Origin: Candidatus Caldarchaeum sp. | GTDB taxonomy: Archaea; Thermoproteota; Nitrososphaeria_A; Caldarchaeales; Caldarchaeaceae | Assembly: GCA_038844785.1 (NCBI GenBank) | Contig: JAWBRA010000025.1 | Location: 1-24,842, forward strand | DNA: 24,842 nucleotides | Direction of reading: 5' to 3' | In this document: positions 6,282 to 20,592 of the stretch, in pieces | How the letters are laid out: every line of letters begins with the position of its first letter | Position numbering within the stretch: the stretch's first letter is position 1 | Translations under genes and position numbers: made by a program | Notes under the pieces: generated by a model | Told to the model about the DNA's origin: nothing | The model's database searches: none | What the model saw: the letters and a program-made list of their open reading frames with translations, nothing else

Positions 6282-7460
6282 ATGCAGAAGCTTGTCTCTC
6301 CTGTTTTGCTGGCTGGGAACGAGGCCGTAGCGCTTGCCGTGAAGCAGAGCGATGTGGATGTGATAGCAGCCTATCCGATAACGCCGCAGACGACGATAGT
6401 TGAGAGGCTGAGCAAATACGTAGCTGACGGAGAGCTTGCAGCAAGGTTTGTGTCCGTTGAATCAGAGCACTCAGCCCTGAGCGCATGCGTCGGAGCCTCA
6501 GCAGCTGGAGCTAGAACCTTCACAGCAACATCCAGCCAAGGCCTTGCGCTCATGCATGAAGTCATGTACATCGCCGCTGGGATGAGGCTGCCCATAGTAA
6601 TGGCTGTGGCAAACCGAGCCCTCTCAGCCCCCATCAACATACACGGAGACCACTCCGACATAATGGGTTCGAGAGACGCTGGATGGATACAGATTTTCTG
6701 CGAGAACGTGCAGGAGGCATACGACAGAACAATCCAAGCCTACAGGCTCGCCGAAGACGAAAGAGTCCTCCTCCCCGTCGCGGTAAACATAGACGGCTTC
6801 ACACTCTCCCACTGTTACGAGCAAGTCACACCGCTGGAAGACCAAAACGTCGAGAAATATCTTCCAAGAAGGCCGAGACCTGTGCTAGATTTTGAAAACC
6901 CAGTCACCATGGGAGCGTTCTCCTTGACCAACACTTATTTCGAGATCAAGCTCGGGCAGGCGAAGGCGCTTGAGGCTGTGAAAGATGTCTTCAAGAGCGT
7001 TGTGGAACAATATCCCGGCAACAAACATGGCATGGATATGTTGAACGTCTTCAACTCTGAAGCATCCGTCAAGCTAGTTTGCATGGGAAGCATGGCTGGC
7101 ACGCTCCGCCACACCATCAAAACATACGGATACAGGGATTTCGGCGTCGTCAGCGTTAAAATGTTCAGGCCATTCCCGCGCGAGAAGCTTCTCACAGCCC
7201 TGTCTAACGCTGAGCTTATCGCAGTGTTTGACAGAGCGGTTTCGCCCGGCGGAGCAGCCAATCCTCTGGCCTACGACGTGAAAGCAACGCTCTACGACGC
7301 AGGTTTGCGAACCCCTGTCTGGAATGTTGTCTACGGCCTCGGCGGCAGGGAGACAACGACCACCGCTGTGAAATCTCTTCTCACGGAATTGGCTGAGGCT
7401 AGGAGGGAGGGGTTGCAGGCCAGCAGAACCGTTTATCTTCAAGGGGTGGGTCAGCCGTGA
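6282..7460 (+). CDS. porA: Pyruvate/2-oxoacid:ferredoxin oxidoreductase alpha subunit
   Basis: AAYPITPQT, ESEHSA, TATSSQGL, NRALSAPINIHGDHSD, YGLGGR. Confidence 0.95.
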   Translation: MQKLVSPVLLAGNEAVALAVKQSDVDVIAAYPITPQTTIVERLSKYVADGELAARFVSVESEHSALSACVGASAAGARTFTATSSQGLALMHEVMYIAAGMRLPIVMAVANRALSAPINIHGDHSDIMGSRDAGWIQIFCENVQEAYDRTIQAYRLAEDERVLLPVAVNIDGFTLSHCYEQVTPLEDQNVEKYLPRRPRPVLDFENPVTMGAFSLTNTYFEIKLGQAKALEAVKDVFKSVVEQYPGNKHGMDMLNVFNSEASVKLVCMGSMAGTLRHTIKTYGYRDFGVVSVKMFRPFPREKLLTALSNAELIAVFDRAVSPGGAANPLAYDVKATLYDAGLRTPVWNVVYGLGGRETTTTAVKSLLTELAEARREGLQASRTVYLQGVGQP

Positions 7461-8383
7461 AACCGGTGCAAAGGCTTGACGAGCTTGTTGGAAGAGAGCT
7501 GATAAGCCCGGGCCACAGCGCTTGCGCGGGATGCGGCGCCATGATAGCTGTCCGCCAGATACTTCTCGCCGCACCCACGCCTCTCATAGTAGTCAACGCC
7601 ACAGGATGTGTGGAAGTGGTTACTACACAGATACCTTACACTGCTTGGAACACCCCATACATACACGTAGCCTTTGAGAACGCTGCAGCTGTTGCGTCTG
7701 GCGTTGAAGCAGCGTTAGACATCCTCGAGAGCAAGGGTCTTGGGCGGAGGCATAACATCCTCGTCATAGCAGGCGATGGCGGAACAGCTGACATAGGGCT
7801 TCAAGCCCTGTCGGGAGCTTTTGAAAGAGGCCACCGTTTCCTCTACGTGTGCTACGATAACGAGGCTTACATGAACACTGGGATTCAGCGGAGTTCACTC
7901 ACCCCGCTCGGTGCTTGGTCGAGGACGACGCCTAAGGGAAAGCTCGAGGAGAAGAAAGACCTCGTAGCAATCGCGGTAGCACACAACATCCCCTACGCAG
8001 CCACCGCCACAATATTCTTCTGGAAAGACCTTGTGAACAAGGTCAGGAAGGCTTTCACCTTCAACGGCCCCTCGTTCATCCACGTCTACGCACCCTGCAA
8101 CAGAGGCTGGTACTTCAACCCTGAAGAAACAATCAAGCTCTCGAAGCTGGCTGTCGAGACGAGATACTTTCCTTTGTACGAGGTTGTAGAAGGCGTCTAC
8201 AGGATAAACTATTTCGTCGCAAACCCGAAGCCTCTCGAAGAGTTTCTAAGACCGCAGGGAAGGTTCCAGCATCTCCTCAAGCCTGAGAACCAGCATCTCC
8301 TCCAAATGCTCAAAGAACACGTCAACAAAAGATGGGAGGCTCTCGTGCGTCTGTCGCAGGTTTCGGCGAAGCCTAAAGCCTAG
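7457..8383 (+). CDS. porB: Pyruvate/2-oxoacid:ferredoxin oxidoreductase beta subunit (TPP)
   Basis: GHSACAGCG, NATGC, GDGGTADIG, YDNEAYMNTGIQRS, APC. Confidence 0.95.
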   Translation: MKPVQRLDELVGRELISPGHSACAGCGAMIAVRQILLAAPTPLIVVNATGCVEVVTTQIPYTAWNTPYIHVAFENAAAVASGVEAALDILESKGLGRRHNILVIAGDGGTADIGLQALSGAFERGHRFLYVCYDNEAYMNTGIQRSSLTPLGAWSRTTPKGKLEEKKDLVAIAVAHNIPYAATATIFFWKDLVNKVRKAFTFNGPSFIHVYAPCNRGWYFNPEETIKLSKLAVETRYFPLYEVVEGVYRINYFVANPKPLEEFLRPQGRFQHLLKPENQHLLQMLKEHVNKRWEALVRLSQVSAKPKA

Positions 8384-9835: not shown

Positions 9836-9920
9836 TTTTGGACCTGGTACAATATTTAACACGGTATAATAAACACCCAACCATTAACCGTTTTGAGGAG
9901 CTGTGGGAGGTTTTCAAGCC
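9836..9920. promoter_or_regulatory. Divergent promoter region
   Basis: AT-rich gap with ATATTTAA and TATAATAAA elements between head-to-head genes; SD GGGAGG at 9905-9910. Confidence 0.5.
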
Positions 9921-10184
9921 TTGAAGATTTTACGCGAGCCGATAAACCTTGCACAGTTCCGCAGACCTTTGGGACAGGTTTACATCATCCCCGAGAGATG
10001 TAAGGAATGTAGTTTCTGCTGGACTTTCTGCCCCATGGATGTTTTGATGAGGTCTGACGAGTTCAACTCCAACGGCTACAGGTATCCCAAGGTCAAGCCG
10101 GGGAAAGAAAACGACTGCGTAAACTGTAAGATGTGCAGCCTGATCTGCCCCGAGCTCGCAATCTACACCGTTGAGGTGAGCTGA
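9921..10184 (+). CDS. korD: 2-oxoacid:ferredoxin oxidoreductase delta subunit/ferredoxin
   Basis: CKECSFCWTFCP, FNSNGYRYP, CVNCKMCSLICPELAI. Start TTG 9921 (GTG 9903 is an alternative). Confidence 0.85.
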   Translation: MKILREPINLAQFRRPLGQVYIIPERCKECSFCWTFCPMDVLMRSDEFNSNGYRYPKVKPGKENDCVNCKMCSLICPELAIYTVEVS

Positions 10185-10188
10185 AGAG

Positions 10189-11334
10189 ATGAGCAACGGG
10201 TTGCCTAAGCCAGGCATCCACTTCATGATGGGAAACTTTGCATGCGTCGAAGCCGCCATACTTGCGGGATGCAGGTTCTTCGCCGGATACCCCATCACAC
10301 CCTCCAGCGAGATATTCGAGAGAGCCTGCGTTAGGTTTCCGCAGGTAGGCGGCATAGCGGTTGAGATGGAGGATGAGATGGGGAGCGTAGCCGCTTTAGT
10401 AGGTGCTTCCTACGCGGGCGCTAAGGCGATGACAGCAACCTCAGGGCCTGGGTTTAGCTTGATGATGGAGAACATAGGCCTGGCTTTCATCATGGAGGCT
10501 CCCATAGTCATAGTAAATGTCCAGAGAGCGGGGCCGAGCACGGGAATCCCCACCTTGGTCGGGCAGGGTGACATGATGCAGGCTAAGTGGGGTTCCCACG
10601 GCGACGTCGAGATGGTTGCATACTGTCCCAGCAGCGTCCAAGAGTTCTTCGACCTAACAATCAAAGCATTCAACACAGCAGAACGTTTACGCACACCCGT
10701 CATCGTGCTAGCCGACCAGGTTATTGGGCTGATGTGGGAGAAGCTGAGAATCCCCCACCCCGAGGAGGTTGAGGTTGTAGAGAGAAAAGTAATGGACAAA
10801 TCATATCTCTCCAACAAGCTTCCGTTCGACTATTCTGAGGATGTAAACCCGATGCCGTTGGCTGGGACGGGATGCAGGGTCAACATCGACAGCCTCACCC
10901 ACGACGAGAGAGGCTACCCCACGACAAGCCACGACGCCTCCGACAAAATGATAAGATATCTTCTCAACAAGATTCGTAACCATGCGCGTGAGCTTTGGCT
11001 TTACAAAGAGTTCATGACAGACGACGCGGAGGTCGTGGTGGTTGCTTACGGGTCTGTGGCGAGGTCTGCTCTAAACGCCGTCAAGCAAGCCCGCTCACGC
11101 GGGATAAGGGCTGGGTTTCTCCAGCTCATCACGGCATGGCCCTTCCCAACAGACGTAATCGAGAAAATCAGCCAACGAGCCCACACGCTTGTAGTTCCCG
11201 AGATAAACTTCGGCCAGCTCGTACATCCAATCAAGGAGTATGCAAAATGTCCTGTAATCGAGGTTAACTGGGCGCCCGGCTCCCTCATAGAGCCCAGCGT
11301 AATCCTTGATGCTGTGGAGGTGGCTGCGGCGTGA
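10189..11334 (+). CDS. korA: 2-oxoglutarate-type 2-oxoacid:ferredoxin oxidoreductase alpha subunit
   Basis: FFAGYPITPSSE, MEDEMGS, TATSGPGFSLM, VQRAGPSTGIPT, WGSHGD. Confidence 0.93.
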   Translation: MSNGLPKPGIHFMMGNFACVEAAILAGCRFFAGYPITPSSEIFERACVRFPQVGGIAVEMEDEMGSVAALVGASYAGAKAMTATSGPGFSLMMENIGLAFIMEAPIVIVNVQRAGPSTGIPTLVGQGDMMQAKWGSHGDVEMVAYCPSSVQEFFDLTIKAFNTAERLRTPVIVLADQVIGLMWEKLRIPHPEEVEVVERKVMDKSYLSNKLPFDYSEDVNPMPLAGTGCRVNIDSLTHDERGYPTTSHDASDKMIRYLLNKIRNHARELWLYKEFMTDDAEVVVVAYGSVARSALNAVKQARSRGIRAGFLQLITAWPFPTDVIEKISQRAHTLVVPEINFGQLVHPIKEYAKCPVIEVNWAPGSLIEPSVILDAVEVAAA

Positions 11335-12185
11335 CGCAGGTTATAACTGTTCAGAGGCATCCGCGGGACAGGCTTCTCAGGTATGAGAGGCTTCCCCACA
11401 TCTGGTGTCCCGGCTGCGGGATAGGCATAGTCATGGCGGCTTACGCGGAGGCGATCGAGGCTTCGGGAATTCCGCCCGAGAAACATGTCTGCATCTCCGG
11501 GATAGGGTGTACAGGGCGTGTTGCTGGCTACATGAACCTCGACTCATACCATACAACGCACGGGAGGCCCATTGCGTTCGCCACAGGCCTTTCCCTCGTC
11601 AAGCCCGACTTGGAGGTGACCGTCATCTCGGGCGACGGCGACATCTGCACCATAGGCGGAAACCATCTCATTCACGCGGCACGGAGAAACGTGGACATCA
11701 ACGTGATAATGGTGAACAACTTCAACTATGGGATGACGGGTGGCCAGCACGGCGGAACAACCCCGCTCGGAGCAAAGACATACACAACACCCTACGGAAA
11801 CATCGAAACACCTTTCAACATCCCATATCTTCTAGCCGCCGCAGGCGCCTCGTTCGTCGCCAGATGGACAACACTCCACGTAAGACAGCTAATCAACGCG
11901 ATCAAACACATGATGACTGTCGAAGGCTTCGCATTCATAGAGGTTATATCCCCGTGCCCGCCAACTTTCGGAGAGTTCAACAAATTCCCCGAAGCGGTCG
12001 ACATGATGGAATACTTTAGGAAACACTGTGTGATAGACCACAACGCCGACCTCAGCAAAATAGGCATAGAGTTGAAGGGTGAGCCGCTGGTTGTGGGGAA
12101 CTTCGTAGACAGGAGAAGGCCGAGCTATCAAGAGCTTGTCCAGCAGCTCATAAGCAGAGCCATGGAAGGAGGTGGGGAAGTTTGA
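11331..12185 (+). CDS. korB: 2-oxoglutarate-type oxidoreductase beta subunit
   Basis: HIWCPGCG, SGIGC, HTTHGR, GDGD...IGGNH, YGMTGGQ, SPCP. Confidence 0.93.
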   Translation: MTQVITVQRHPRDRLLRYERLPHIWCPGCGIGIVMAAYAEAIEASGIPPEKHVCISGIGCTGRVAGYMNLDSYHTTHGRPIAFATGLSLVKPDLEVTVISGDGDICTIGGNHLIHAARRNVDINVIMVNNFNYGMTGGQHGGTTPLGAKTYTTPYGNIETPFNIPYLLAAAGASFVARWTTLHVRQLINAIKHMMTVEGFAFIEVISPCPPTFGEFNKFPEAVDMMEYFRKHCVIDHNADLSKIGIELKGEPLVVGNFVDRRRPSYQELVQQLISRAMEGGGEV

Positions 12186-12736
12186 GGTATGAGGTTAGGA
12201 TAACTGGTCTCGGCGGGCAGGGTGCGATAACCGCTGGACACATCCTCGGAAGAGCTGCCGTGATATACGACGGCAGAGAAGCCGTCGTCACAGAAGGATA
12301 CAGCCCATACATAACAGGCGGCTGGTCGAGGGCGGATGTGATAATCTCCGACGAGCCGATAGACTACCCGCTAATGACGAAACTCGACGTCTTAGCCACC
12401 ATGTACGATGATGGGTTTGTCCAGAACATCAAGTATGTCAAACGCAACGGAATCGTGGTCACGGAGAAAGAGCTCGTCAAACACACATTCCACAGAGATG
12501 TTCGAATAATACCTATTCCTGCGATACAGGTGGCCGACAGCTTGGGCAGGAGAGTTGTCATGAACATCGTGATTCTCGGCGCTGTTGTGGCTGCTCTTGG
12601 AGGAGTGCCGTCGCTCGAGTCTGTTGCGAAGGCTTTGGCTGACCGTTTCCCCAAAGCCGCTGAGCTCAACCGCAAAGCCCTCCACGAAGGCTACAGCATA
12701 GCCTGCGAGCATTTGACGGCTAAGGAGGTGGTGTGA
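12182..12736 (+). CDS. korC: 2-oxoglutarate-type oxidoreductase gamma subunit
   Basis: EVRITGLGGQG, GGWSRADVIISDEPIDYP, NIVILGA. Confidence 0.9.
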   Translation: MRYEVRITGLGGQGAITAGHILGRAAVIYDGREAVVTEGYSPYITGGWSRADVIISDEPIDYPLMTKLDVLATMYDDGFVQNIKYVKRNGIVVTEKELVKHTFHRDVRIIPIPAIQVADSLGRRVVMNIVILGAVVAALGGVPSLESVAKALADRFPKAAELNRKALHEGYSIACEHLTAKEVV

Positions 12737-15700
12737 AAATGGCTGACGCGGTTCTCGTGATCGGCGGCGGCATAGCCGGGGTTCAGGCATCGCTCGACCT
12801 CGCCAAAGCCGGTGCGAAAGTCTACCTCGTGGAGAAAAGCCCCGTGATAGGCGGGAGGATGGCTGCTCTCGACAAAAACTTCCCCACGATGGACTGCTCC
12901 ATCTGTATGCCTGGAGACACCGATATAATACTCGGCGACGGCTCAATAGTTCCTATTCGGGACCTAGTTGAGAGGTTCGAGCATGGAGATTTCAACCCCC
13001 ATCCACCTGAAACATTTTCTTTTGACGGAAACACGGTTAGTTTACGTCCTATAGTGGCTGGACAAAAGCTACCCTACTCCTACAACCTCATCGAGATAAC
13101 TACTGCGACAGGAGGTAGGCTTCGCTTTACTCCCGACCATAAGATACTTGTCGACGATGAAAATGGCCCGGCTTGGAGAGAAGCCAGTAAACTTAGGGTC
13201 GGTGACATGCTCTATGCCCCGCGGAAGCTTGGCCCCAAAAAATCGCAGCCTCGCTACGTAATAGACCTTTTACCAAAAGAGTTCATTGTAGTTGACGACG
13301 ACATCAACAATCGCGTCAGGAAAGAACTTAAGAAGAAATTCGGAAGCCTCACTAAAGCGGCGGTGAAACTCAGTTTAAAGCGCGGCCATCTAGACAGTAG
13401 ACGTGGGCTCTCAATAAGCGAGCTAGAAAGAGTAGCCGAAGCCCTTGGCTTTAGCTGGGAAAATCTTAAGGTAAGGGTCAAAAGCATCACGTATCAGGGG
13501 GCCCACGGACCGGTTAGGCTACGCAAAACACGCATTGATGAAGACATGGCTTACCTACTGGGTCTCTTGGCGGCAGACGGCAGCTTATCCAGAAAAGAGA
13601 TAAAGTTCTATAACACGAACAAGAGTTTGATCAGGATATACGTAAAGATTTATCGCAGGCTCTTCCCAGGGAAGCGGTGTTGGATAAATGTCCAGACAGG
13701 AGGGGGGAAGAGATGGAAGAAAAGGATGGCTGTGAGATGCAAGAATAGAGTTTTGCTCAGCATTGCGCAGAAGCTTGACATAGGAGGCGGTCTTAAACCT
13801 CTCTTCCCGCTTGATGAGAAAATTGTGAGCAGCTTCCTAAGAGGATACTTTGATGGGGATGGGACGGTAAAGATAACTAGGTGGAGAGGCTGGTCGTCCT
13901 TCAAGATCACCTTCAACTTAGGTAAAGACCGTTATGAACATGCAAAGGGCTTACAGCTTCTCCTTAAGAGACTGGGCATCATCAGCAAACTTTACACGTA
14001 TGAGGACAGGGTTCTGCTGGATATATCAGAAAGGGAGGATGTGGCGAGGTTCTCATCTATAGTACGCTCGAATCATCCTTTTAAGCGGCGTAGGCTGCTG
14101 GAGGCGAATAAGGCCTCTAAGCTTCCAAGGAAAATGGGAGGCCTCTTTGAGCAGCTCCCGCTGGAGTGCGGGCGGCTGATCCGGTTTTTGATGGATAGGT
14201 ACAGAATACCCCTTAAAAGGCTCCCTTTGAGTCGCTCAAATCTTCTACGAGTAACGAGACAGGAATGCAGAATAACTAGGGTTAACCTTCGTCGTGTAAT
14301 AAATGTCCTGAGACGCTATGTTAGACCTGATGACAAGGATTTCATAAAGCTTAACCAACTATGTAATTCTAGCTTCTTCCTAGACCAGGTAAAGGAAGTA
14401 AAGGTCGTTCCCTCAAAGGAGGATTATGTATATGATATAACGGTTGATGGTGTCCATAACTTCATTCCGGAAGGCATTTTCACCGTAAGTAACTGTATAG
14501 AGGCGCCGAAGCTGAGCGAGGTCATGCAGAGCAGGAACATCAAGGTCCTGACGTTGAGCGATGTTGTAGAGGTTAGCGGAGGTCCTGGAAACTTCCGAGT
14601 CAAGGTTCGTCAGAGACCTCGTTACGTCACAGACGAGTGTACCAGATGCGGGGACTGTGTGCCCGCATGTCCTGTCATATTGAAGAACGAGTTTGACGTG
14701 GGCATGGGTGCGAGGAAAGCCATCTACCTACCGTTCGACCAAGCAGAGCCGGGAGCATACGTCATAGACATTGAAAACTGTTTGAACAAGCCTCCCAACT
14801 ACCTTCCATGCAACAGATGTGTTGAGGCATGCGGGCCTAAATGCATAGACTTTGAGATGAAGGAAAAAACCCACGAGCTTGAGGTTGGAGCCATCATAGT
14901 TGCAGCCGGCTCAGACCTGTTCGACGCCTCCCTCATCCCCGAGTTCAGCTACGGCAGACATCCAGACATTCTGACCGCGATGGAGCTGGAGAGGCTGCTG
15001 CAGTCGAGCGGGCCCTCGAGAGGCGAGGTGATAAAGCCCAGCGACCACCAACATCCAGAAAAAGTCGCCTTCATCCTCTGCGTGGGAGCACGTGACAAAA
15101 GGTTCTACAGCTTCTGCAGCAGGGTCTGCTGCATGTACAGCATCAAAGAAGCCCTGCAGCTGGTTGACCATGGAATCAAAAACGTCACCGTCTTCTACAT
15201 GGACATAAGAGCTTACGGGAAAGGCTTTGACGAGATGTTTGAGAGGGCGAGAAACAGCGGCGTCAGGTTTGTGCGAAGCAGGCCGGGAAGGATAATCCCC
15301 AACGGCCACGGCATAGATGTCTTCTACGAGGACACTACGTCAGGAGAGCTGAGACGTGAAACGTTTGACATGGTTGTTCTCTCAACAGCCCTCACACCTT
15401 CGGAGGAGCTGAGAAAGCTGGCTGACACGCTGGGGATAGAGGTTGGAGAAGACGGTTTCATAAAGTCCTACGAGGTTGACGGCGACTTCGTCGGAACTTC
15501 GAGGGAGGGCATATACGTATGCGGCTGTGCAAGCGGCCCCAAAGACATCCCCGACAGCGTCACCGAGGCAGGGGCTGCAGCCGCAAAAGCGCTCACACAT
15601 CTCACCGCGAAAAGCCTCGAGCCTGAAGTCTACGAGGAAACGATAGACCCTTCAGGAGAGCCGAGAGTAGGTGTTTTCATCTGCCACTGCGGCTCCAACA

Positions 15701-17697
15701 TAGCCGGAGTCGTCGACATAAAAGCAGCCGCCGAACAGGCGAGGAAGCTACCCTACGTCGCCTACGTGGACGACCAGAAGTTCTCATGCTCAGGCGCTGG
15801 AACAAAGTATATCGAGAACGTGATAAGGGAGAAGAAGCTTAACAGGGTTGTTGTCGCCGCCTGCTCGCCTAAAACACACAGCCCAACCTTCATGAGAGCC
15901 TGCGCACGCGCCGGCCTCAACCCATACCTCTTCGAGATGGCCAACATACGCAACCTCAACTCATGGGTTCACAAAAACCAGCCCGCTGAAGCGACGGAGA
16001 AAGCGGTGGACCTTATAGGGATGGCCGTCAGAAAAGTGGCCCTACAAACCCCGTTGACCAAGCTGAAGTCAAACGTCGTGCAAAAGGCCTTGGTAATAGG
16101 AGGCGGCGTGGCAGGCATGACCGCAGCCACGGTCTTGGCGAACATGGGCTTCGAAACACATCTCGTCGAAAAAGAGAGGCAGCTGGGCGGGCTTCTCAGA
16201 TACTTGAAAGAGATAGCGCCTTCAGGGTTGGATGCTCAACGCTTCCTCCGCTGGAAGATGATGCAGCTGGAGAGGTCTGGTGCGAAAATCCATCTTGGCA
16301 CCGAGGTGACTTCGGTGACAGGGTTTGTGGGCAACTATCATGTCACGCTCTCCAACGGTGAAGAGCTTGACGTAGGCGCTGTGATAATTGCGACAGGTGG
16401 GAAACCCCATGAACCCAGCTGGCCCGGCACAGCAGCGAACGGCATGCATGTTACGACGCTGATGAACTACGAGCTGGAAGGAGTGCCCGACAACGCGCGG
16501 AACATAGCTTTCGTGGGATGCGTTGGCTCACGCAACCAGAACAGAGGCTGCTCAAGATACTGCTGCCAAACCATCATCTACCACGCCCTCAAGCTCAGGA
16601 GAGCCGGCAAAAACGTCTCAGTCTTCGTCAAAGACGTTAGGACGTACAGCAGGGGTGCTGAAGAGCTTTACAGAAAGGCCTGCGAGGAGGGGGTGAGGTT
16701 TATCAGGGTAGGTCAAGAGAAGCCGATAGAGGAGCTGGTTCAGATAGGTGACGGGAGTCTGACCGCTTACGACATCGTTTCAGGCGAGACGGTAAGCATA
16801 CCCGCCGACTATGTTGTCTTAGCGACCGCGCTAGACCCGCCGGCGGAGATAACAGCAGCGCAGCATCTCCGAGTCGCCAAAGACTCGGAAGGATTCTTCC
16901 TCGAGCTCCATCCAAAGCTGGGGCCTGTCGAATCCATAACGGGCGGAGTGTTCCTCGCAGGGGTTGCCCAAGGGCCGAAGGACGTGAGGGAGAGCGTGTC
17001 GCAGGGCTTGGCGGCCGCCGCTAAAGCCGCAGCGCTTCTTTCGTCTCCACAGCTTGAGAAAGAACCCTTCATCCCCGTCATCAACACGCAGAGATGCACT
17101 AAATGCATGCGATGCGCCGAGGTCTGTCCATACGGAGCAATCAAAGGCGAGAGGGGGAAGTGGATAGAGGTTGTGCCAGGGCTGTGCGAGGGATGTGGAG
17201 CTTGCGTCGCCGAATGCAACGTCGAAGGCGCGATAACGATGCCAGGCTTCACAGACGAGCAGATAATAGCCCAGATAGACGCAGCCCTAGCCGAGAACCC
17301 GCAGGACAAAGTGATAGTCTTCGCATGCAACTGGTGCAGCTACGCGGGAGCAGACCTCGCAGGCATCCTCAAGATACAGTACCCAGCCTCAAACAGGGTC
17401 ATACGCACGATGTGTTCGGCGAGGGTTTCGCAGAAGTTCATCCTCCACGCCTTCGAGAAAGGAGCTGGAGCCGTGTTCGTCACAGGCTGCTGGCCACAGG
17501 ACTGCCACTACAACTACGCCAACCTCAACACAAAGAAACGCTACGAACGCTGGCTGAGAATCATACAAGCCCGTAAGATAGACCCGAAGAGATTGCAGCT
17601 GCACTGGATAAGCGCGGCCGAGGCGAAGAGGTTTGCTGAGAAGATGAACGAGGCCCATCAGGTGGTGATGAGCTTGAAGAAAGAGGTGAGCGGCTAA
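12733..17697 (+). CDS. hdrA: Intein-containing tandem HdrA-like flavo-Fe/S protein fused to an MvhD-like domain (1654-aa precursor, ~1124 aa spliced)
   Basis: Two FAD Rossmann motifs (GGGIAG, GGGVAG), DKNFPTMDC, ferredoxin motifs, CSRVCC/CSRYCC and an HdrA N-domain (GVFICHCG...ACSP...MANIR) in the middle. The C-terminus is MvhD-like (FACNWCSYAGAD...MCSARV...GCWPQDCHY). Confidence 0.93.
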   Translation: MKMADAVLVIGGGIAGVQASLDLAKAGAKVYLVEKSPVIGGRMAALDKNFPTMDCSICMPGDTDIILGDGSIVPIRDLVERFEHGDFNPHPPETFSFDGNTVSLRPIVAGQKLPYSYNLIEITTATGGRLRFTPDHKILVDDENGPAWREASKLRVGDMLYAPRKLGPKKSQPRYVIDLLPKEFIVVDDDINNRVRKELKKKFGSLTKAAVKLSLKRGHLDSRRGLSISELERVAEALGFSWENLKVRVKSITYQGAHGPVRLRKTRIDEDMAYLLGLLAADGSLSRKEIKFYNTNKSLIRIYVKIYRRLFPGKRCWINVQTGGGKRWKKRMAVRCKNRVLLSIAQKLDIGGGLKPLFPLDEKIVSSFLRGYFDGDGTVKITRWRGWSSFKITFNLGKDRYEHAKGLQLLLKRLGIISKLYTYEDRVLLDISEREDVARFSSIVRSNHPFKRRRLLEANKASKLPRKMGGLFEQLPLECGRLIRFLMDRYRIPLKRLPLSRSNLLRVTRQECRITRVNLRRVINVLRRYVRPDDKDFIKLNQLCNSSFFLDQVKEVKVVPSKEDYVYDITVDGVHNFIPEGIFTVSNCIEAPKLSEVMQSRNIKVLTLSDVVEVSGGPGNFRVKVRQRPRYVTDECTRCGDCVPACPVILKNEFDVGMGARKAIYLPFDQAEPGAYVIDIENCLNKPPNYLPCNRCVEACGPKCIDFEMKEKTHELEVGAIIVAAGSDLFDASLIPEFSYGRHPDILTAMELERLLQSSGPSRGEVIKPSDHQHPEKVAFILCVGARDKRFYSFCSRVCCMYSIKEALQLVDHGIKNVTVFYMDIRAYGKGFDEMFERARNSGVRFVRSRPGRIIPNGHGIDVFYEDTTSGELRRETFDMVVLSTALTPSEELRKLADTLGIEVGEDGFIKSYEVDGDFVGTSREGIYVCGCASGPKDIPDSVTEAGAAAAKALTHLTAKSLEPEVYEETIDPSGEPRVGVFICHCGSNIAGVVDIKAAAEQARKLPYVAYVDDQKFSCSGAGTKYIENVIREKKLNRVVVAACSPKTHSPTFMRACARAGLNPYLFEMANIRNLNSWVHKNQPAEATEKAVDLIGMAVRKVALQTPLTKLKSNVVQKALVIGGGVAGMTAATVLANMGFETHLVEKERQLGGLLRYLKEIAPSGLDAQRFLRWKMMQLERSGAKIHLGTEVTSVTGFVGNYHVTLSNGEELDVGAVIIATGGKPHEPSWPGTAANGMHVTTLMNYELEGVPDNARNIAFVGCVGSRNQNRGCSRYCCQTIIYHALKLRRAGKNVSVFVKDVRTYSRGAEELYRKACEEGVRFIRVGQEKPIEELVQIGDGSLTAYDIVSGETVSIPADYVVLATALDPPAEITAAQHLRVAKDSEGFFLELHPKLGPVESITGGVFLAGVAQGPKDVRESVSQGLAAAAKAAALLSSPQLEKEPFIPVINTQRCTKCMRCAEVCPYGAIKGERGKWIEVVPGLCEGCGACVAECNVEGAITMPGFTDEQIIAQIDAALAENPQDKVIVFACNWCSYAGADLAGILKIQYPASNRVIRTMCSARVSQKFILHAFEKGAGAVFVTGCWPQDCHYNYANLNTKKRYERWLRIIQARKIDPKRLQLHWISAAEAKRFAEKMNEAHQVVMSLKKEVSG
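12904..14493 (+). mobile_element. 530-aa intein with LAGLIDADG homing endonuclease
   Basis: Block A CMPGDTDI, block B LRFTPDHKIL, LAGLIDADG motifs YLLGLLAADG and FLRGYFDGDG, block F/G YVYDITV...HNF...VSN followed by +1 Cys. Removal restores DCSI-CIEAPK. Confidence 0.95.
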
Positions 17698-17698
17698 A

Positions 17699-18838
17699 AT
17701 GATGCCTGCCTACGAGGAGCTCCTCAACGACAAATCGCTGTCTGAAAGCATAAACGCATGCTTCCAGTGTGGAGCATGCACAGCGGCATGCCCGCTCAAC
17801 ATGTTCAACGGTGTAAGACTAAGCCCTCGGCAGATGCTTAGACGGATGCAGCTGGGTCTTCCCACAAACATCGACCCATACCTCTGCATGATGTGCAGGG
17901 CGTGCGAAGCTGTTTGCCCGAGAGGCGTTAAGGTTTCAGAGGTAATCACCGCGTTGAGGAAAATCTGGTTCAAGCAAAACAGAACCCCCGCACCGCTCAC
18001 GCAGGCCCTTTGGAGGGTCTATGAAGAAGGCAACCCATGGGGATATTCCTCCCGCCTGAGAGGACGCTGGCTAGACGGCCTTAACGCAAACATAGCAGGG
18101 AGAAAGAGCGAAACACTCCTATACATCGGATGCATATCATCCTACGACATACGTCTCCAGCGAATAGCCAAGGCCGTAGCCCAGCTGTTGCTCAAAGCTG
18201 GAGTTGACTTCACGGTTCTAGGCCAGGAGGAGAGATGCTGTGGAGACTCGATCTATAACACAGGCGAGACAGACTTTCTCGAAGAACTCGTACAGGAAAA
18301 CATCGGCAAATTCAACGCATACGGCGTCAAGAGAATCATCGCAATCTCACCCCACTGCCTGAGAATGTTCCGCGACATATACCCGCGATACGGCGGGGAA
18401 TACGAAGCACTACATTATACAGAGTTTCTCACCGAACTCCTCGACAGCGGCCGGCTAGTCGTCAACGCCAGCCTTATCGTTAAAGCAACCTACCACGACC
18501 CCTGCTACCTCGGCAGGTACATGAAGATATACGAGCAGCCGAGAAAGCTCATAGAAAACGTCAAAGGACTGTCGTTCGAGGAGATGAAGCTGTCGAAGGA
18601 GCTGGCCCTCTGCTGCGGCGGTGGAGGAGGCCGTATACTGATGGAGTCCAAGCCTGAGGAAAGGCCGTCAAACCTAAGGGTGAGACAGGCTGCGGAGACG
18701 GGTGCGGAAATCCTTGTGACAACATGCCCCTACTGCATAGTAAACTTCGAAGACTCGGCGAAGATCCAGAGAACACCCGTAAAGGTGATGGATTTGGCTG
18801 AGCTTCTCTACGGGGCGGCGGGCGGTCAGCTTGGGTGA
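17699..18838 (+). CDS. HdrD/GlpC-like Fe-S oxidoreductase (2x[4Fe-4S] plus 2 CCG domains)
   Basis: CFQCGACTAACP, CMMCRACEAVCP, GNPWG, ERCCG...SPHC, YHDPC...CCGGGGG...TCPYC. Confidence 0.9.
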   Translation: MMPAYEELLNDKSLSESINACFQCGACTAACPLNMFNGVRLSPRQMLRRMQLGLPTNIDPYLCMMCRACEAVCPRGVKVSEVITALRKIWFKQNRTPAPLTQALWRVYEEGNPWGYSSRLRGRWLDGLNANIAGRKSETLLYIGCISSYDIRLQRIAKAVAQLLLKAGVDFTVLGQEERCCGDSIYNTGETDFLEELVQENIGKFNAYGVKRIIAISPHCLRMFRDIYPRYGGEYEALHYTEFLTELLDSGRLVVNASLIVKATYHDPCYLGRYMKIYEQPRKLIENVKGLSFEEMKLSKELALCCGGGGGRILMESKPEERPSNLRVRQAAETGAEILVTTCPYCIVNFEDSAKIQRTPVKVMDLAELLYGAAGGQLG

Positions 18839-19805
18839 GATATGGACCTTCGTGGAGATAGGGCCTGAAGGCGTTGAAGACGTCTCGCTGGAGATAATGG
18901 GGAAGGCCGCTACGCTGGCGGCTGAAAGCGGTAGGAAGACAGCTGCGGTCGTTACAGGCTGGAAGGTAGATGAAATCGTCCAAGAGGCCGCGAAATACCC
19001 CGTCGACAAAGTCTTCTACGTAGAACACAGCTCGCTCGCCACATACGACCCTTCTAAACACGCCAAAGCCCTACACCAGCTAGTCGAGAAAGAAAAACCT
19101 GAGATGATATTCTTCGGAGCAACCTACACGGGGGCCGACATAGCCTCACGTCTCGCCGTAAGGACTGGGGCAGGCCTGATAGCCCATGTAACATACCTCG
19201 GCATAGACCCCGTCGACGGAAGGCTTGTCGGCCACGTTCCAGGCTTCGGAGGAAGCATCGTAGCCGTCTGCAAATGCAGGCCAAACACCCTGCAGATAGC
19301 CACAGTCAGGCCGGGCGTCTTCGAGAAACCCAAAACAACCAACAAAACAGCGGAAGTTGTAAAATTCACTCCAGGACTCGACCCAGCTGAACCGGGGTGG
19401 ATAGTCCTCGACAGAAAGGTTGCGAAAACGGTTGACGTCACGAGAGCTGAGAAAGTTGTTGTAGCAGGCATGGGGACTGGCGGAGACCTGACGTTAGTCA
19501 AAAAGCTTGCCGACAGGCTGGGGGCTCAGCTGGCTGTGACAAGACCGCTTGCAGACATCGGCGTAGCTCCGAGAGACGTTCAGGTCGGTTCGACAGGAAT
19601 AAGCTTGAGGTCAAAAGCCGCTCTAGTCCTCGGCGTCAGCGGAGCATCACATTTCGTCTCAGGCATCCAAGACGTAAAAACAGTAATCTCAGTCAACACC
19701 GACAGAAACGCCCCGATATTCCAGTTCTCCGACTACTGTGTTCAAGCCGACCTGTTCAAAATCGTTCCAAAGCTCATCGAACACGCTGGGAGGGGAGGTG
19801 GATAG
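18831..19805 (+). CDS. etfA: Electron transfer flavoprotein alpha subunit
   Basis: PGFGG, ATVRPG, TRP..D, QVGSTG, GVSGA, NTDRNAPIF..SDY...DL. Confidence 0.9.
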   Translation: MGEIWTFVEIGPEGVEDVSLEIMGKAATLAAESGRKTAAVVTGWKVDEIVQEAAKYPVDKVFYVEHSSLATYDPSKHAKALHQLVEKEKPEMIFFGATYTGADIASRLAVRTGAGLIAHVTYLGIDPVDGRLVGHVPGFGGSIVAVCKCRPNTLQIATVRPGVFEKPKTTNKTAEVVKFTPGLDPAEPGWIVLDRKVAKTVDVTRAEKVVVAGMGTGGDLTLVKKLADRLGAQLAVTRPLADIGVAPRDVQVGSTGISLRSKAALVLGVSGASHFVSGIQDVKTVISVNTDRNAPIFQFSDYCVQADLFKIVPKLIEHAGRGGG

Positions 19806-19806
19806 G

Positions 19807-20592
19807 TTGAACATAGTTGTCTGCGTCAAAGTCGTTCCCAAAGTTGACCAAGTCAGGTTCGACCCTGTCACGAAAACTGTTGACAGAACGTCGGCTGAGA
19901 ACGAGCTCAACGAAGCTGATAAAAACGCCTTGGAGACGGCGTTGCAGCTCAAAGAGAAACATGGTGGGAAGGTTGCTGTTGTGTCTATGGGGCCGCCTTT
20001 CTTCGAACCCTTCCTCAAAATATGTGTGGCCATGGGAGCTGACGACGCGGTTCTTTTGTCCGACAAAGCCTTCGCAGGAGCCGACACCTACGCCACATCA
20101 TACGTGCTAGCCCAAGCGGTAAAGAAGCTGAAACCCGACCTCGTGCTATGCGGTGAAAGCACGTCGGACTCCGGAACAGCTCAGGTCCCGGCCCAGATGG
20201 CTGAATGGCTTAGATACCCAAACATCTCCTACGCGTCAAACGTAAGCGTTGACAACGGGTTCGTCGTGGCCAGACGTACCGTGAAAGGAGGGTATGAGGT
20301 TGTAAAAGCCCCTCTGCCAGCCGTGGTGTCTGTGGAGCTGGGCTCCAACACGCCGAGGTTTCCCGACTTCAAGAGGAAGAGATGGGCTGAAAGAGAGTTC
20401 AAAACAACCGTCTGGACATCCGCAGACCTCGAGCTCGACCTCTCCCTCGCAGGAAGGGCTGGGTCGAAGACCGATGTTGTGGAGCTTCAGTCCATAGCTC
20501 CGCCGCAGAGGCTTAGAAAGTTCTTGGAAGGCTCCGAAGACGAGATAGCCCAGACCATACTGAAGATAATCAAGGAAGCCGTCACGGAATAG
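19807..20592 (+). CDS. etfB: Electron transfer flavoprotein beta subunit
   Basis: NIVVCVKVVP, SMGPP, DKAFAGADTYATS, DSGTAQVP, NTPRFP. Start TTG 19807 (or GTG 19798) rather than the track's 19738. Confidence 0.92.
   Translation: MNIVVCVKVVPKVDQVRFDPVTKTVDRTSAENELNEADKNALETALQLKEKHGGKVAVVSMGPPFFEPFLKICVAMGADDAVLLSDKAFAGADTYATSYVLAQAVKKLKPDLVLCGESTSDSGTAQVPAQMAEWLRYPNISYASNVSVDNGFVVARRTVKGGYEVVKAPLPAVVSVELGSNTPRFPDFKRKRWAEREFKTTVWTSADLELDLSLAGRAGSKTDVVELQSIAPPQRLRKFLEGSEDEIAQTILKIIKEAVTE

Follow-up and report, generated by a model that had tools for sequence, protein, structure and literature searches.

The stretch of DNA analysed here, called the window, comprises 24,842 nucleotides (nt) and covers positions 1 to 24,842 of the forward strand of contig JAWBRA010000025.1 from the Candidatus Caldarchaeum sp. 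assembly GCA_038844785.1. Its forward strand holds an uninterrupted open reading frame (12733..17697) of 1654 amino acids (aa), in which the coding sequence of a flavoprotein of the heterodisulfide reductase subunit A (HdrA) type is interrupted, in frame, by a class-1 intein of 530 aa with a LAGLIDADG endonuclease domain (12904-14493). The junctions are DCSI/C...VSN/C: the insert opens with CMPGDTDIIL and closes with GIFTVSN, and the host sequence then resumes with CIEAPKLSE. An intein at these junctions (DCSI/C...C) had been proposed in an initial annotation of this DNA, and the profiles, the motifs and the intein-free homologues agree with it. The span given there, 12895-14496, was right as to the junctions, but its end included the codon of the +1 residue, which lies outside the intein itself. 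The individual features are collected in Table 1.

Searched on its own, the intein scored above the cut-offs of the Pfam families Intein_splicing (PF14890, 63.8 bits against 35.8) and LAGLIDADG_3 (PF14528, 65.2 bits against 22.5, in two stretches), and above those of the TIGRFAM models for the N- and C-terminal intein parts, TIGR01445 (50.4 bits against 24.5) and TIGR01443 (23.0 bits against 15.6). Comparison with the PDB by sequence was weak, the top match reaching 33.6 bits. An AlphaFold model of the intein, built on 18 allelic sequences, had a mean predicted local distance difference test (pLDDT) score of 85.7 and a predicted template modelling (pTM) score of 0.81, with the N-extein near the junction (residues 38-56) modelled at pLDDT below 50. 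Its best Foldseek matches were intein endonucleases, namely PI-TkoII (2cw7, E 1.6e-20), Tli VMA (7qss) and PI-PfuI (1dq3), followed by PI-SceI. The insert is a genuine class-1 intein with a LAGLIDADG endonuclease, and the endonuclease looks intact, as both acidic residues of its LAGLIDADG motifs are present. The penultimate intein residue is Ser586 and not the usual His; each of the 18 alleles has serine at this position, and many related inteins share it. Inteins can splice without a penultimate His, and judged from its motifs the intein of the window is probably splicing-competent. An intron or an insertion sequence was ruled out by the continuous frame, the intein blocks and the presence of intein sequence in contigs from RNA libraries.

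For the analysis of the host site, precursor residues 585-1100 were searched against a collection of 5.8 billion proteins, and the best 120 matches were taken. All but one (119 of 120) were intein-free homologues of 1026-1166 aa, in which the junction reads DCSIC (117 proteins), DCSTC (1) or DCSVC (1). Excision of the intein would therefore restore the native host sequence, since all 119 read through as DCSxC. The closest intein-free homologues (P0002-P0007, 79-89% identity) read NFPTMDCSICIEAPKLSE, identical to the product predicted for ligation of the exteins, and the eight closest homologues shown in the alignment have NFPT(M/L)DCSICIEAPK. Empty sites were also read in the DNA of two sister genera, G017 (89% protein identity) and G016 (81%), at loci L021 and L022; around the site, G017 matches the window at 70 of 90 nt and encodes the identical peptide. 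These comparisons show an exact insertion and no chance match. The first cysteine of the motif (Cys-3) is encoded by the host and older than the intein, being present in 119 of the 119 intein-free homologues examined. The pairing of Cys-3 with the first intein residue (Cys1), and the conserved cysteine that follows the intein (Cys+1), both pointed out in the initial annotation, can be read in the DNA, and Cys+1 recurs in all empty homologues.

The sole intein-bearing protein among the best 120 matches was P0001, which comes from a public metagenome-assembled genome labelled Candidatus Caldarchaeum and is 99% identical. It is annotated from a Met five residues before the intein (MDCSIC...) and thereby loses 52 N-extein residues, including the GxGxxG motif that binds flavin adenine dinucleotide (FAD); annotators should beware of this public start call, which discards the N-extein. 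Separately, hot-spring metagenome run X9, which holds the intein allele, also contains short contigs whose match is limited to the 35 conserved nt ahead of the insertion point (loose ends at 12871 and 12905). These contigs continue uninterrupted as ...CIEAPKMSEV and represent HdrA homologues without an intein, from other members of the community.

The host protein is a tandem HdrA-HdrA-MvhD fusion. The HdrA2 model NF040770 scored 1144.5 bits on the precursor (cut-off 1100), and the canonical HdrA models stayed under their cut-offs (NF041778, 716 against 1400; NF041891, 709 against 1300). The probable true start is the ATG at 12739, 9 nt downstream of AAGGAGGTG, rather than the GTG that opens the reading frame. 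Cys+1, residue 1 of the C-extein, aligns to position 197 of the HdrA chain 5odc_A. According to PMC9012536, one HdrA copy supplies Cys197 of its thioredoxin-reductase-like domain as a ligand to the [4Fe-4S] cluster in the N-terminal domain of its partner, the ferredoxin-side electron path passes through this cluster, and in tandem or fused HdrAs Cys197 and the N-terminal domain occur in a complementary manner. The numbering of PMC9012536 and that of 5odc_A were assumed to be identical, which is supported by the match at 197, the residue letter in 5odc_A not having been seen. In the fusion of the window, module 1 has the Cys197-type cysteine and lacks the N-terminal domain; the N-terminal-type iron-sulfur (Fe-S) domain in front of module 2 (precursor residues 976-1112) is presumed to be the partner of Cys+1. 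Neither cysteine of C-S-I-C is kept in the counterpart segment of module 2 (Table 1), and by homology Cys+1 would be the mature protein's sole ligand of the Cys197 type.

Because Cys+1 aligns to Cys197, the CxxC is probably a metal-ligand motif and not a redox-active dithiol. The initial annotation had placed the intein inside a CxxC motif, as a candidate redox-gated splicing switch; a dithiol of the thioredoxin-reductase type was considered and set aside, as the second cysteine corresponds to the inter-subunit [4Fe-4S] ligand. As for the first cysteine (Cys-3) and its role in mature HdrA, 'Cys194' does not occur in the text of PMC9012536. The insertion point, at the bond before the Cys197 equivalent, is one of the most conserved sites of HdrA-type flavoproteins.

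On the basis of motifs and homology, the following maturation pathway can be proposed. The gene would be translated as a 1654-aa precursor in which the FAD domain of module 1 is interrupted. Cys1 would then make an N-S acyl shift, Cys+1 would attack the thioester, and the terminal Asn would cyclise, leaving the exteins joined to ...NFPTMDCSICIEAPK.... Until splicing has taken place, Cys+1 could not complete, as fourth ligand, the [4Fe-4S] cluster that module 2 of the same protein carries in its N-terminal-type domain; the electron path on the ferredoxin side would thus require splicing as an obligatory step of its maturation. We consider it reasonably probable that the element is a mobile intein whose excision, as an obligatory step, completes an inter-module Fe-S site, and whose redox sensitivity is likely but unselected.

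Table 1 Features of the intein-containing HdrA gene and of its gene row (positions in the window; OFOR, 2-oxoacid:ferredoxin oxidoreductase)
Feature	Positions	Strand	Remarks
OFOR delta	9903-10184	+	Pfam Fer4
OFOR alpha	10189-11334	+	Pfam POR_N/PFOR_II
OFOR beta	11331-12185	+	Pfam TPP_enzyme_C
OFOR gamma	12182-12736	+	Pfam POR
N-extein, 57 aa from GTG 12733	12733-12903	+	GxGxxG FAD-binding start of HdrA module 1; ends ...NFPTMDCSI; aligns to 5odc_A 145-196
Cys-3 codon, TGC	12895-12897	+	host residue of the conserved DCSxC motif; followed by TCC, ATC (to 12903)
Cys1, N-terminal splicing nucleophile, TGT	12904-12906	+	invariant in 18/18 allelic HdrA inteins
Block B, T-P-D-H (precursor Thr133, His136)	13129-13140	+	Thr and His invariant in the 18-sequence allelic alignment
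LAGLIDADG motif 1, LLGLLAADG	13555-13581	+	Asp282 retained; replaced in 4 of the 18 aligned alleles
LAGLIDADG motif 2, FLRGYFDGDG	13834-13863	+	Asp376 retained
Block F, D568...H575, within VYDITVDGVHNF	14434-14457	+	both residues invariant in the allelic alignment
Intein C-terminus Ser-Asn, AGT AAC	14488-14493	+	S586 and N587 invariant in 18/18 alleles; Asn is the cyclisation residue
Cys+1, C-extein nucleophile, TGT	14494-14496	+	N587/C588 junction invariant among alleles
C-extein and stop codon	14494-17697	+	rest of HdrA module 1, N-terminal-type Fe-S domain, HdrA module 2, 2x[4Fe-4S] ferredoxin domain, MvhD/FlpD domain; Pfam, NCBIfam
N-terminal-type HdrA Fe-S domain before module 2	15658-16068	+	precursor residues 976-1112; aligns to 5odc_A 3-139, E 9.5e-42; CHC, C and AACSP cysteines conserved
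Module-2 counterpart of C-S-I-C, A-Q-R-F	16234-16245	+	neither cysteine present; seen when module 1 of P0002 was aligned to module 2 with BLASTP
HdrD-like, ferredoxin domain and 2x CCG	17699-18838	+	Pfam CCG, Fer4_8
EtfA-like	18831-19805	+	Pfam ETF, ETF_alpha
EtfB-like	19738-20592	+	Pfam ETF

An intein search detected 16 further HdrA-type clusters (at 90% identity; members P0121, P0122 and P0271-P0284) with allelic inteins at the same site, 35-47% identical to the intein of the window. All of them lie at DCS(I/A)/C...VSN/CI(E/L) and are 456-532 aa long, and HdrA-site inteins span three host architectures, namely single-module HdrA, HdrA-MvhD and the tandem form. The initial annotation had suggested a search for inteins and for empty alleles at this site; empty alleles were indeed present, and with these 16 clusters the intein is not unique. 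Cys1, the T..H of block B, the D..H of block F, the terminal SN and Cys+1 are invariant across the 18 allelic sequences. A LAGLIDADG Asp has been lost in 5 of the 18 aligned alleles, and the intein of the window keeps both. In the five (P0276, P0277, P0280, P0282 and P0283) the motif reads SNG, SGG, FDGAG, FDGHG and FDGGG, and P0282 is in addition shorter by about 75 residues between its splicing domain and its endonuclease domain; from their sequences, these alleles look like different stages of endonuclease decay. One of the allelic proteins has been named automatically by the Joint Genome Institute (JGI) as 'heterodisulfide reductase subunit A-like polyferredoxin/intein/homing endonuclease'. 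In the literature searched, intein-survey supplements excepted, no paper describing an HdrA intein was found, and the only shared match was a ribonucleotide reductase intein. The HdrA intein site is thus already in public databases, where it was once auto-named, and absent from the literature searched.

The distribution of the intein is patchy. Of 401 genomes sampled evenly across the phylum, 12 have a match to it at E<=1e-40, and in 6 of these the matching intein lies at the HdrA site: the genome of the window (G000), G004, and 4 of the 17 genomes of one distant genus. When 49 full-length relatives were placed on a tree, the HdrA inteins grouped in one clade (Shimodaira-Hasegawa-like approximate likelihood ratio test, SH-aLRT, 100), with the intein of the window near its base. 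Its GC content is 0.44-0.49, compared with 0.52-0.59 in the host gene. Between G000 and G004 (loci L008 and L020; region 11404-17199) 9 of the 1590 intein nt differ (0.57%), as do 63 of the 4206 nt of the flanks (1.5%; binomial p=0.003); for this one genome pair, this is a hint that the intein copy is of more recent date than the sequence around it, or spread more recently. Strain-level variants, counted as synonymous to non-synonymous, stood at 8:11 in the intein and 15:6 in the host genes, a difference that is not significant (Fisher p=0.11). The patchy distribution, the low GC content, the single clade and site and the divergence below that of the flanks suggest that the intein is a mobile selfish element, which may spread by homing.

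At least half of the sampled words of the window occur in 13 metagenome runs, and the window or part of it occurs in 17 hot-spring metagenome runs from nine studies, six of which may be the source sample. An independent contig (X7) spans 12300-15300, with 26 differences from the window and no gap. No joints of an intein-free allele of the same strain were seen in the metagenome contigs, which drop rare variants. Contigs from RNA libraries lie inside the intein (X17 at 12876-13045 and 13705-13847, X16 at 14033-14418), where carry-over of DNA is possible; over the N-junction, the RNA-library contig has only 28 nt on the extein side, with 31 required.

The genome of the window is 1.74 Mb in 57 contigs and 95% complete. 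The initial annotation had called the host the hub protein of its operon, and the Pfam and NCBIfam assignments support it as the central Fe-S flavoprotein of a tightly packed row in the order OFOR, HdrA, HdrD-like, EtfAB. The upstream OFOR genes abut or overlap the HdrA gene, and as the genes of the row abut or overlap one another, we infer from this arrangement that OFOR-HdrA-HdrD-EtfAB is co-transcribed. A second OFOR pair is located just upstream of the row (alpha-like, 6282-7460; beta-like, 7457-8383). The host gene is accessory: it occurs in 4 of 18 genomes of the family (E<=1e-60) and in 2 of 13 of its own genus counting G000, these being G000 and G004, both with the intein at 99% identity. 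Three COX1-type (haem-copper) oxidase subunits over cut-off are encoded in the genome, so the organism is probably exposed to oxygen.

Inteins related to that of the window have entered other cysteine motifs. Among 73 N-junctions of 69 related inteins, which are relatives and not independent events, Cys is found at -3 in 10, compared with 2 of 438 at the other six positions from -7 to -1 (Fisher p=1e-7). The 10 Cys-3 junctions represent five host sites: HdrA, a NuoD-like large subunit (RICGI/C, PF00346), a NuoB-like protein (DCGS/C, PF01058), acetyl-CoA synthase (FYSCxL/C) and an Lhr helicase; on the tree of 49 relatives the Cys-3 label needs at least four changes. The relatives in P0123, P0128, P0133, P0130, P0141, P0149 and P0155 include inteins in the metal-ligand CxxC of NuoD-like/[NiFe]-hydrogenase large subunits, of NuoB-like small subunits and of acetyl-CoA synthase; further hosts are OFOR alpha and beta, Cbf5 and A-type ATPase subunit B. 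In the same genome, Tes (NF045703, the intein-containing form, 836.7 bits, partial open reading frame) carries an intein between the second and third radical-SAM cysteines (C-DLH-C-WY/C...VSN/C; L003:991-3210, contig C13 from about 46205 onward), with the same Cys-3/Cys1/Cys+1 triad as HdrA. Two further inteins of this genome were noted: one in SufB (L001:577-2991, C19), reading ...DANIG/CLDPD...VHN/SKV and retaining a LAGLIDADG remnant, and a mini-intein in aIF2/IF5B (L005:1087-3123, C3), reading ...HGK/CVSPE...LHN/TSL. With HdrA, Tes and SufB among the hosts, three of the four inteins of the genome are in Fe-S-related proteins.

The presence of both Cys-3 and Cys1 raises the question of redox control. 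It has been reported that a Cys-3/Cys1 disulfide blocks the first splicing step of the Pyrococcus abyssi MoaA intein under oxidising conditions, a precedent that the initial annotation had cited correctly as judged from two reviews (PMC10663303, PMC3922620). The spacing of the two cysteines in HdrA matches that of the MoaA trap, and since it does, a reversible oxidative stall is chemically plausible; by this analogy, oxidising conditions would probably stall splicing reversibly through a disulfide. Because Cys-3 belongs to the host in all empty homologues, the CxxC geometry does not speak for an evolved switch: it comes for free to every intein whose +1 residue is the second cysteine of this motif. 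The closeness of Cys-3 to Cys1, and of Cys1 to Cys+1, results from landing in a host CxxC metal-ligand motif, and we take the likely redox sensitivity to be a latent, unselected side effect of this and not an evolved switch.

Several points weigh against this reading and against the obligatory maturation step joined to it. Splicing, endonuclease activity and Fe-S ligation are all predicted for this protein, and the role of Cys197 is carried over by homology from the HdrA of methanogens to a fused protein of a non-methanogen. The usual penultimate His is replaced by Ser, which is probably tolerated. Furthermore, the enrichment of Cys-3 among the relatives could reflect selection for a redox trap, and the haem-copper oxidases imply real oxygen exposure, under which a redox checkpoint would be useful.

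The last two points lead to the alternative that the intein is an evolved redox-gated switch, in which a Cys-3/Cys1 disulfide locks the precursor until the cell is reduced, so that an oxygen-labile complex is gated and the arrangement is maintained by selection. The C-x-x-C1 spacing is that of the engineered Ssp DnaE trap and of the native Pyrococcus abyssi MoaA intein, in both of which the disulfide is reported to block step 1. The host is rich in Fe-S clusters, a variable redox state is suggested by three COX1-type subunits in the genome, related inteins are enriched in Cys-3, and the Tes intein has the same C-x-x-/C1.../C+1 layout within a radical-SAM CxxxCxxC. Set against this, Cys-3 is host-encoded and universal in empty alleles and needs no selection for gating, the motif C-S-I-C is without the Pro-Gly of the engineered trap, and the variant counts (8:11 against 15:6, p=0.11) hint at relaxed rather than added constraint. 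The archaeal cytoplasm is also normally reducing, which counts against an evolved switch. We consider such a switch unlikely, while giving it some weight.

A broader form of the same idea is that related Ser-Asn LAGLIDADG inteins have repeatedly colonised the metal-ligand CxxC of oxygen-sensitive redox enzymes, with HdrA, NuoD-like, NuoB-like, acetyl-CoA synthase and Tes proteins as the hosts seen, and that the Cys-3/Cys1/Cys+1 triad arising in each case is a general redox or metal checkpoint which withholds a cofactor ligand, and with it cofactor insertion, until the cytoplasm is reduced. The recurrence in CxxC motifs fits this, and it fits equally a settling of inteins at the most conserved cysteine, as in the metal-binding CxxC of redox enzymes; a general checkpoint appears doubtful to us. 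If it were true, metalloenzymes of hot-spring archaea would commonly mature under the added control of conditional splicing.

Splicing could also be conditional on another cue, such as a Cys1/Cys+1 disulfide, binding of a metal or an Fe-S cluster by the Cys triad, or high temperature; maturation would then be tied to the supply of cofactor or to growth temperature, and not to the Cys-3/Cys1 pair. Reviews state that a Cys1/Cys+1 disulfide prevents splicing of the Pab PolII intein, and they list temperature, salt and metal ions among the controls of splicing. The three cysteines of the HdrA intein cluster at its two junctions, and its sequence comes from hot-spring metagenomes. The argument is one of analogy, and the sequence gives no distinction from constitutive splicing; we regard such a cue as improbable. 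Finally, a decayed, non-splicing insert (an inactive gene with the operon running without this HdrA, or a relic intein) would agree with the missing penultimate His, with the higher non-synonymous share in the intein than in the host and with the accessory state of the operon in the genus (host gene in 2 of 13 genomes), but is very improbable given a 1654-aa frame that is intact and free of gaps in G000, G004 and the independent metagenome contig, nucleophiles and block residues that are invariant across alleles only 35-47% identical, and a Ser-Asn terminus that is common to related inteins in essential genes, e.g. A-type ATPase subunit B.

A mobile intein whose excision completes the Fe-S site is thus the reading that we retain. 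Flavin-based electron bifurcation has HdrA-type flavoproteins at its core, and an intein that withholds the one cysteine predicted to bridge the electron path of the two modules would make maturation of the enzyme depend on a post-translational step. With the HdrA intein, the range of proteins known to host inteins comes to include central anaerobic redox metabolism. With its Cys triad and 16 allelic variants, it also offers a natural and easily cloned test case for whether inteins are regulators or only parasites.

Compared with known systems, the HdrA intein resembles the Pyrococcus abyssi MoaA intein in the spacing of Cys-3 and Cys1, in being of class 1 and in residing in an oxygen-labile Fe-S host of an archaeon from a hot habitat. 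It differs in that the host is an HdrA-type flavoprotein and Cys+1 is itself a predicted cluster ligand, and redox dependence would here follow only by analogy. With the Tes intein of its own genome it shares the Cys triad and the ...VSN/C end, whereas the host and the type of cluster differ; within the genome, the Tes intein gave no match to the HdrA intein at E<=1e-10. The predicted combination of a Hint domain, a two-motif LAGLIDADG domain and extra DNA-binding parts is that of PI-TkoII (2cw7), the Tli and Pho VMA inteins (7qss/7qst), PI-PfuI (1dq3) and PI-SceI (Foldseek E 1.6e-20 to 1.5e-15), but the identity to these solved inteins is 12-18%, and their hosts are DNA polymerase, ribonucleotide reductase and ATPase. 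On the side of the host, HdrA3/4 of anaerobic methanotrophic archaea (ANME) and the HdrA of Moorella thermoacetica, as described in PMC9012536, are likewise two-module chains with Cys197 and the N-terminal domain in different modules, and no intein is reported there. In our protein the order is reversed, the Cys197-bearing module coming first, an MvhD domain is present at the C-terminus, and the neighbours are OFOR, HdrD-like and EtfAB genes. Close counterparts in public databases are the allelic HdrA inteins, which have the identical site and a similar length and belong to one clade; in place of the tandem fusion of the window they occupy single-module HdrA (some 615-680 aa once the intein is excised) or HdrA-MvhD (some 810-820 aa), and the inteins themselves are 35-47% identical to the one described here.

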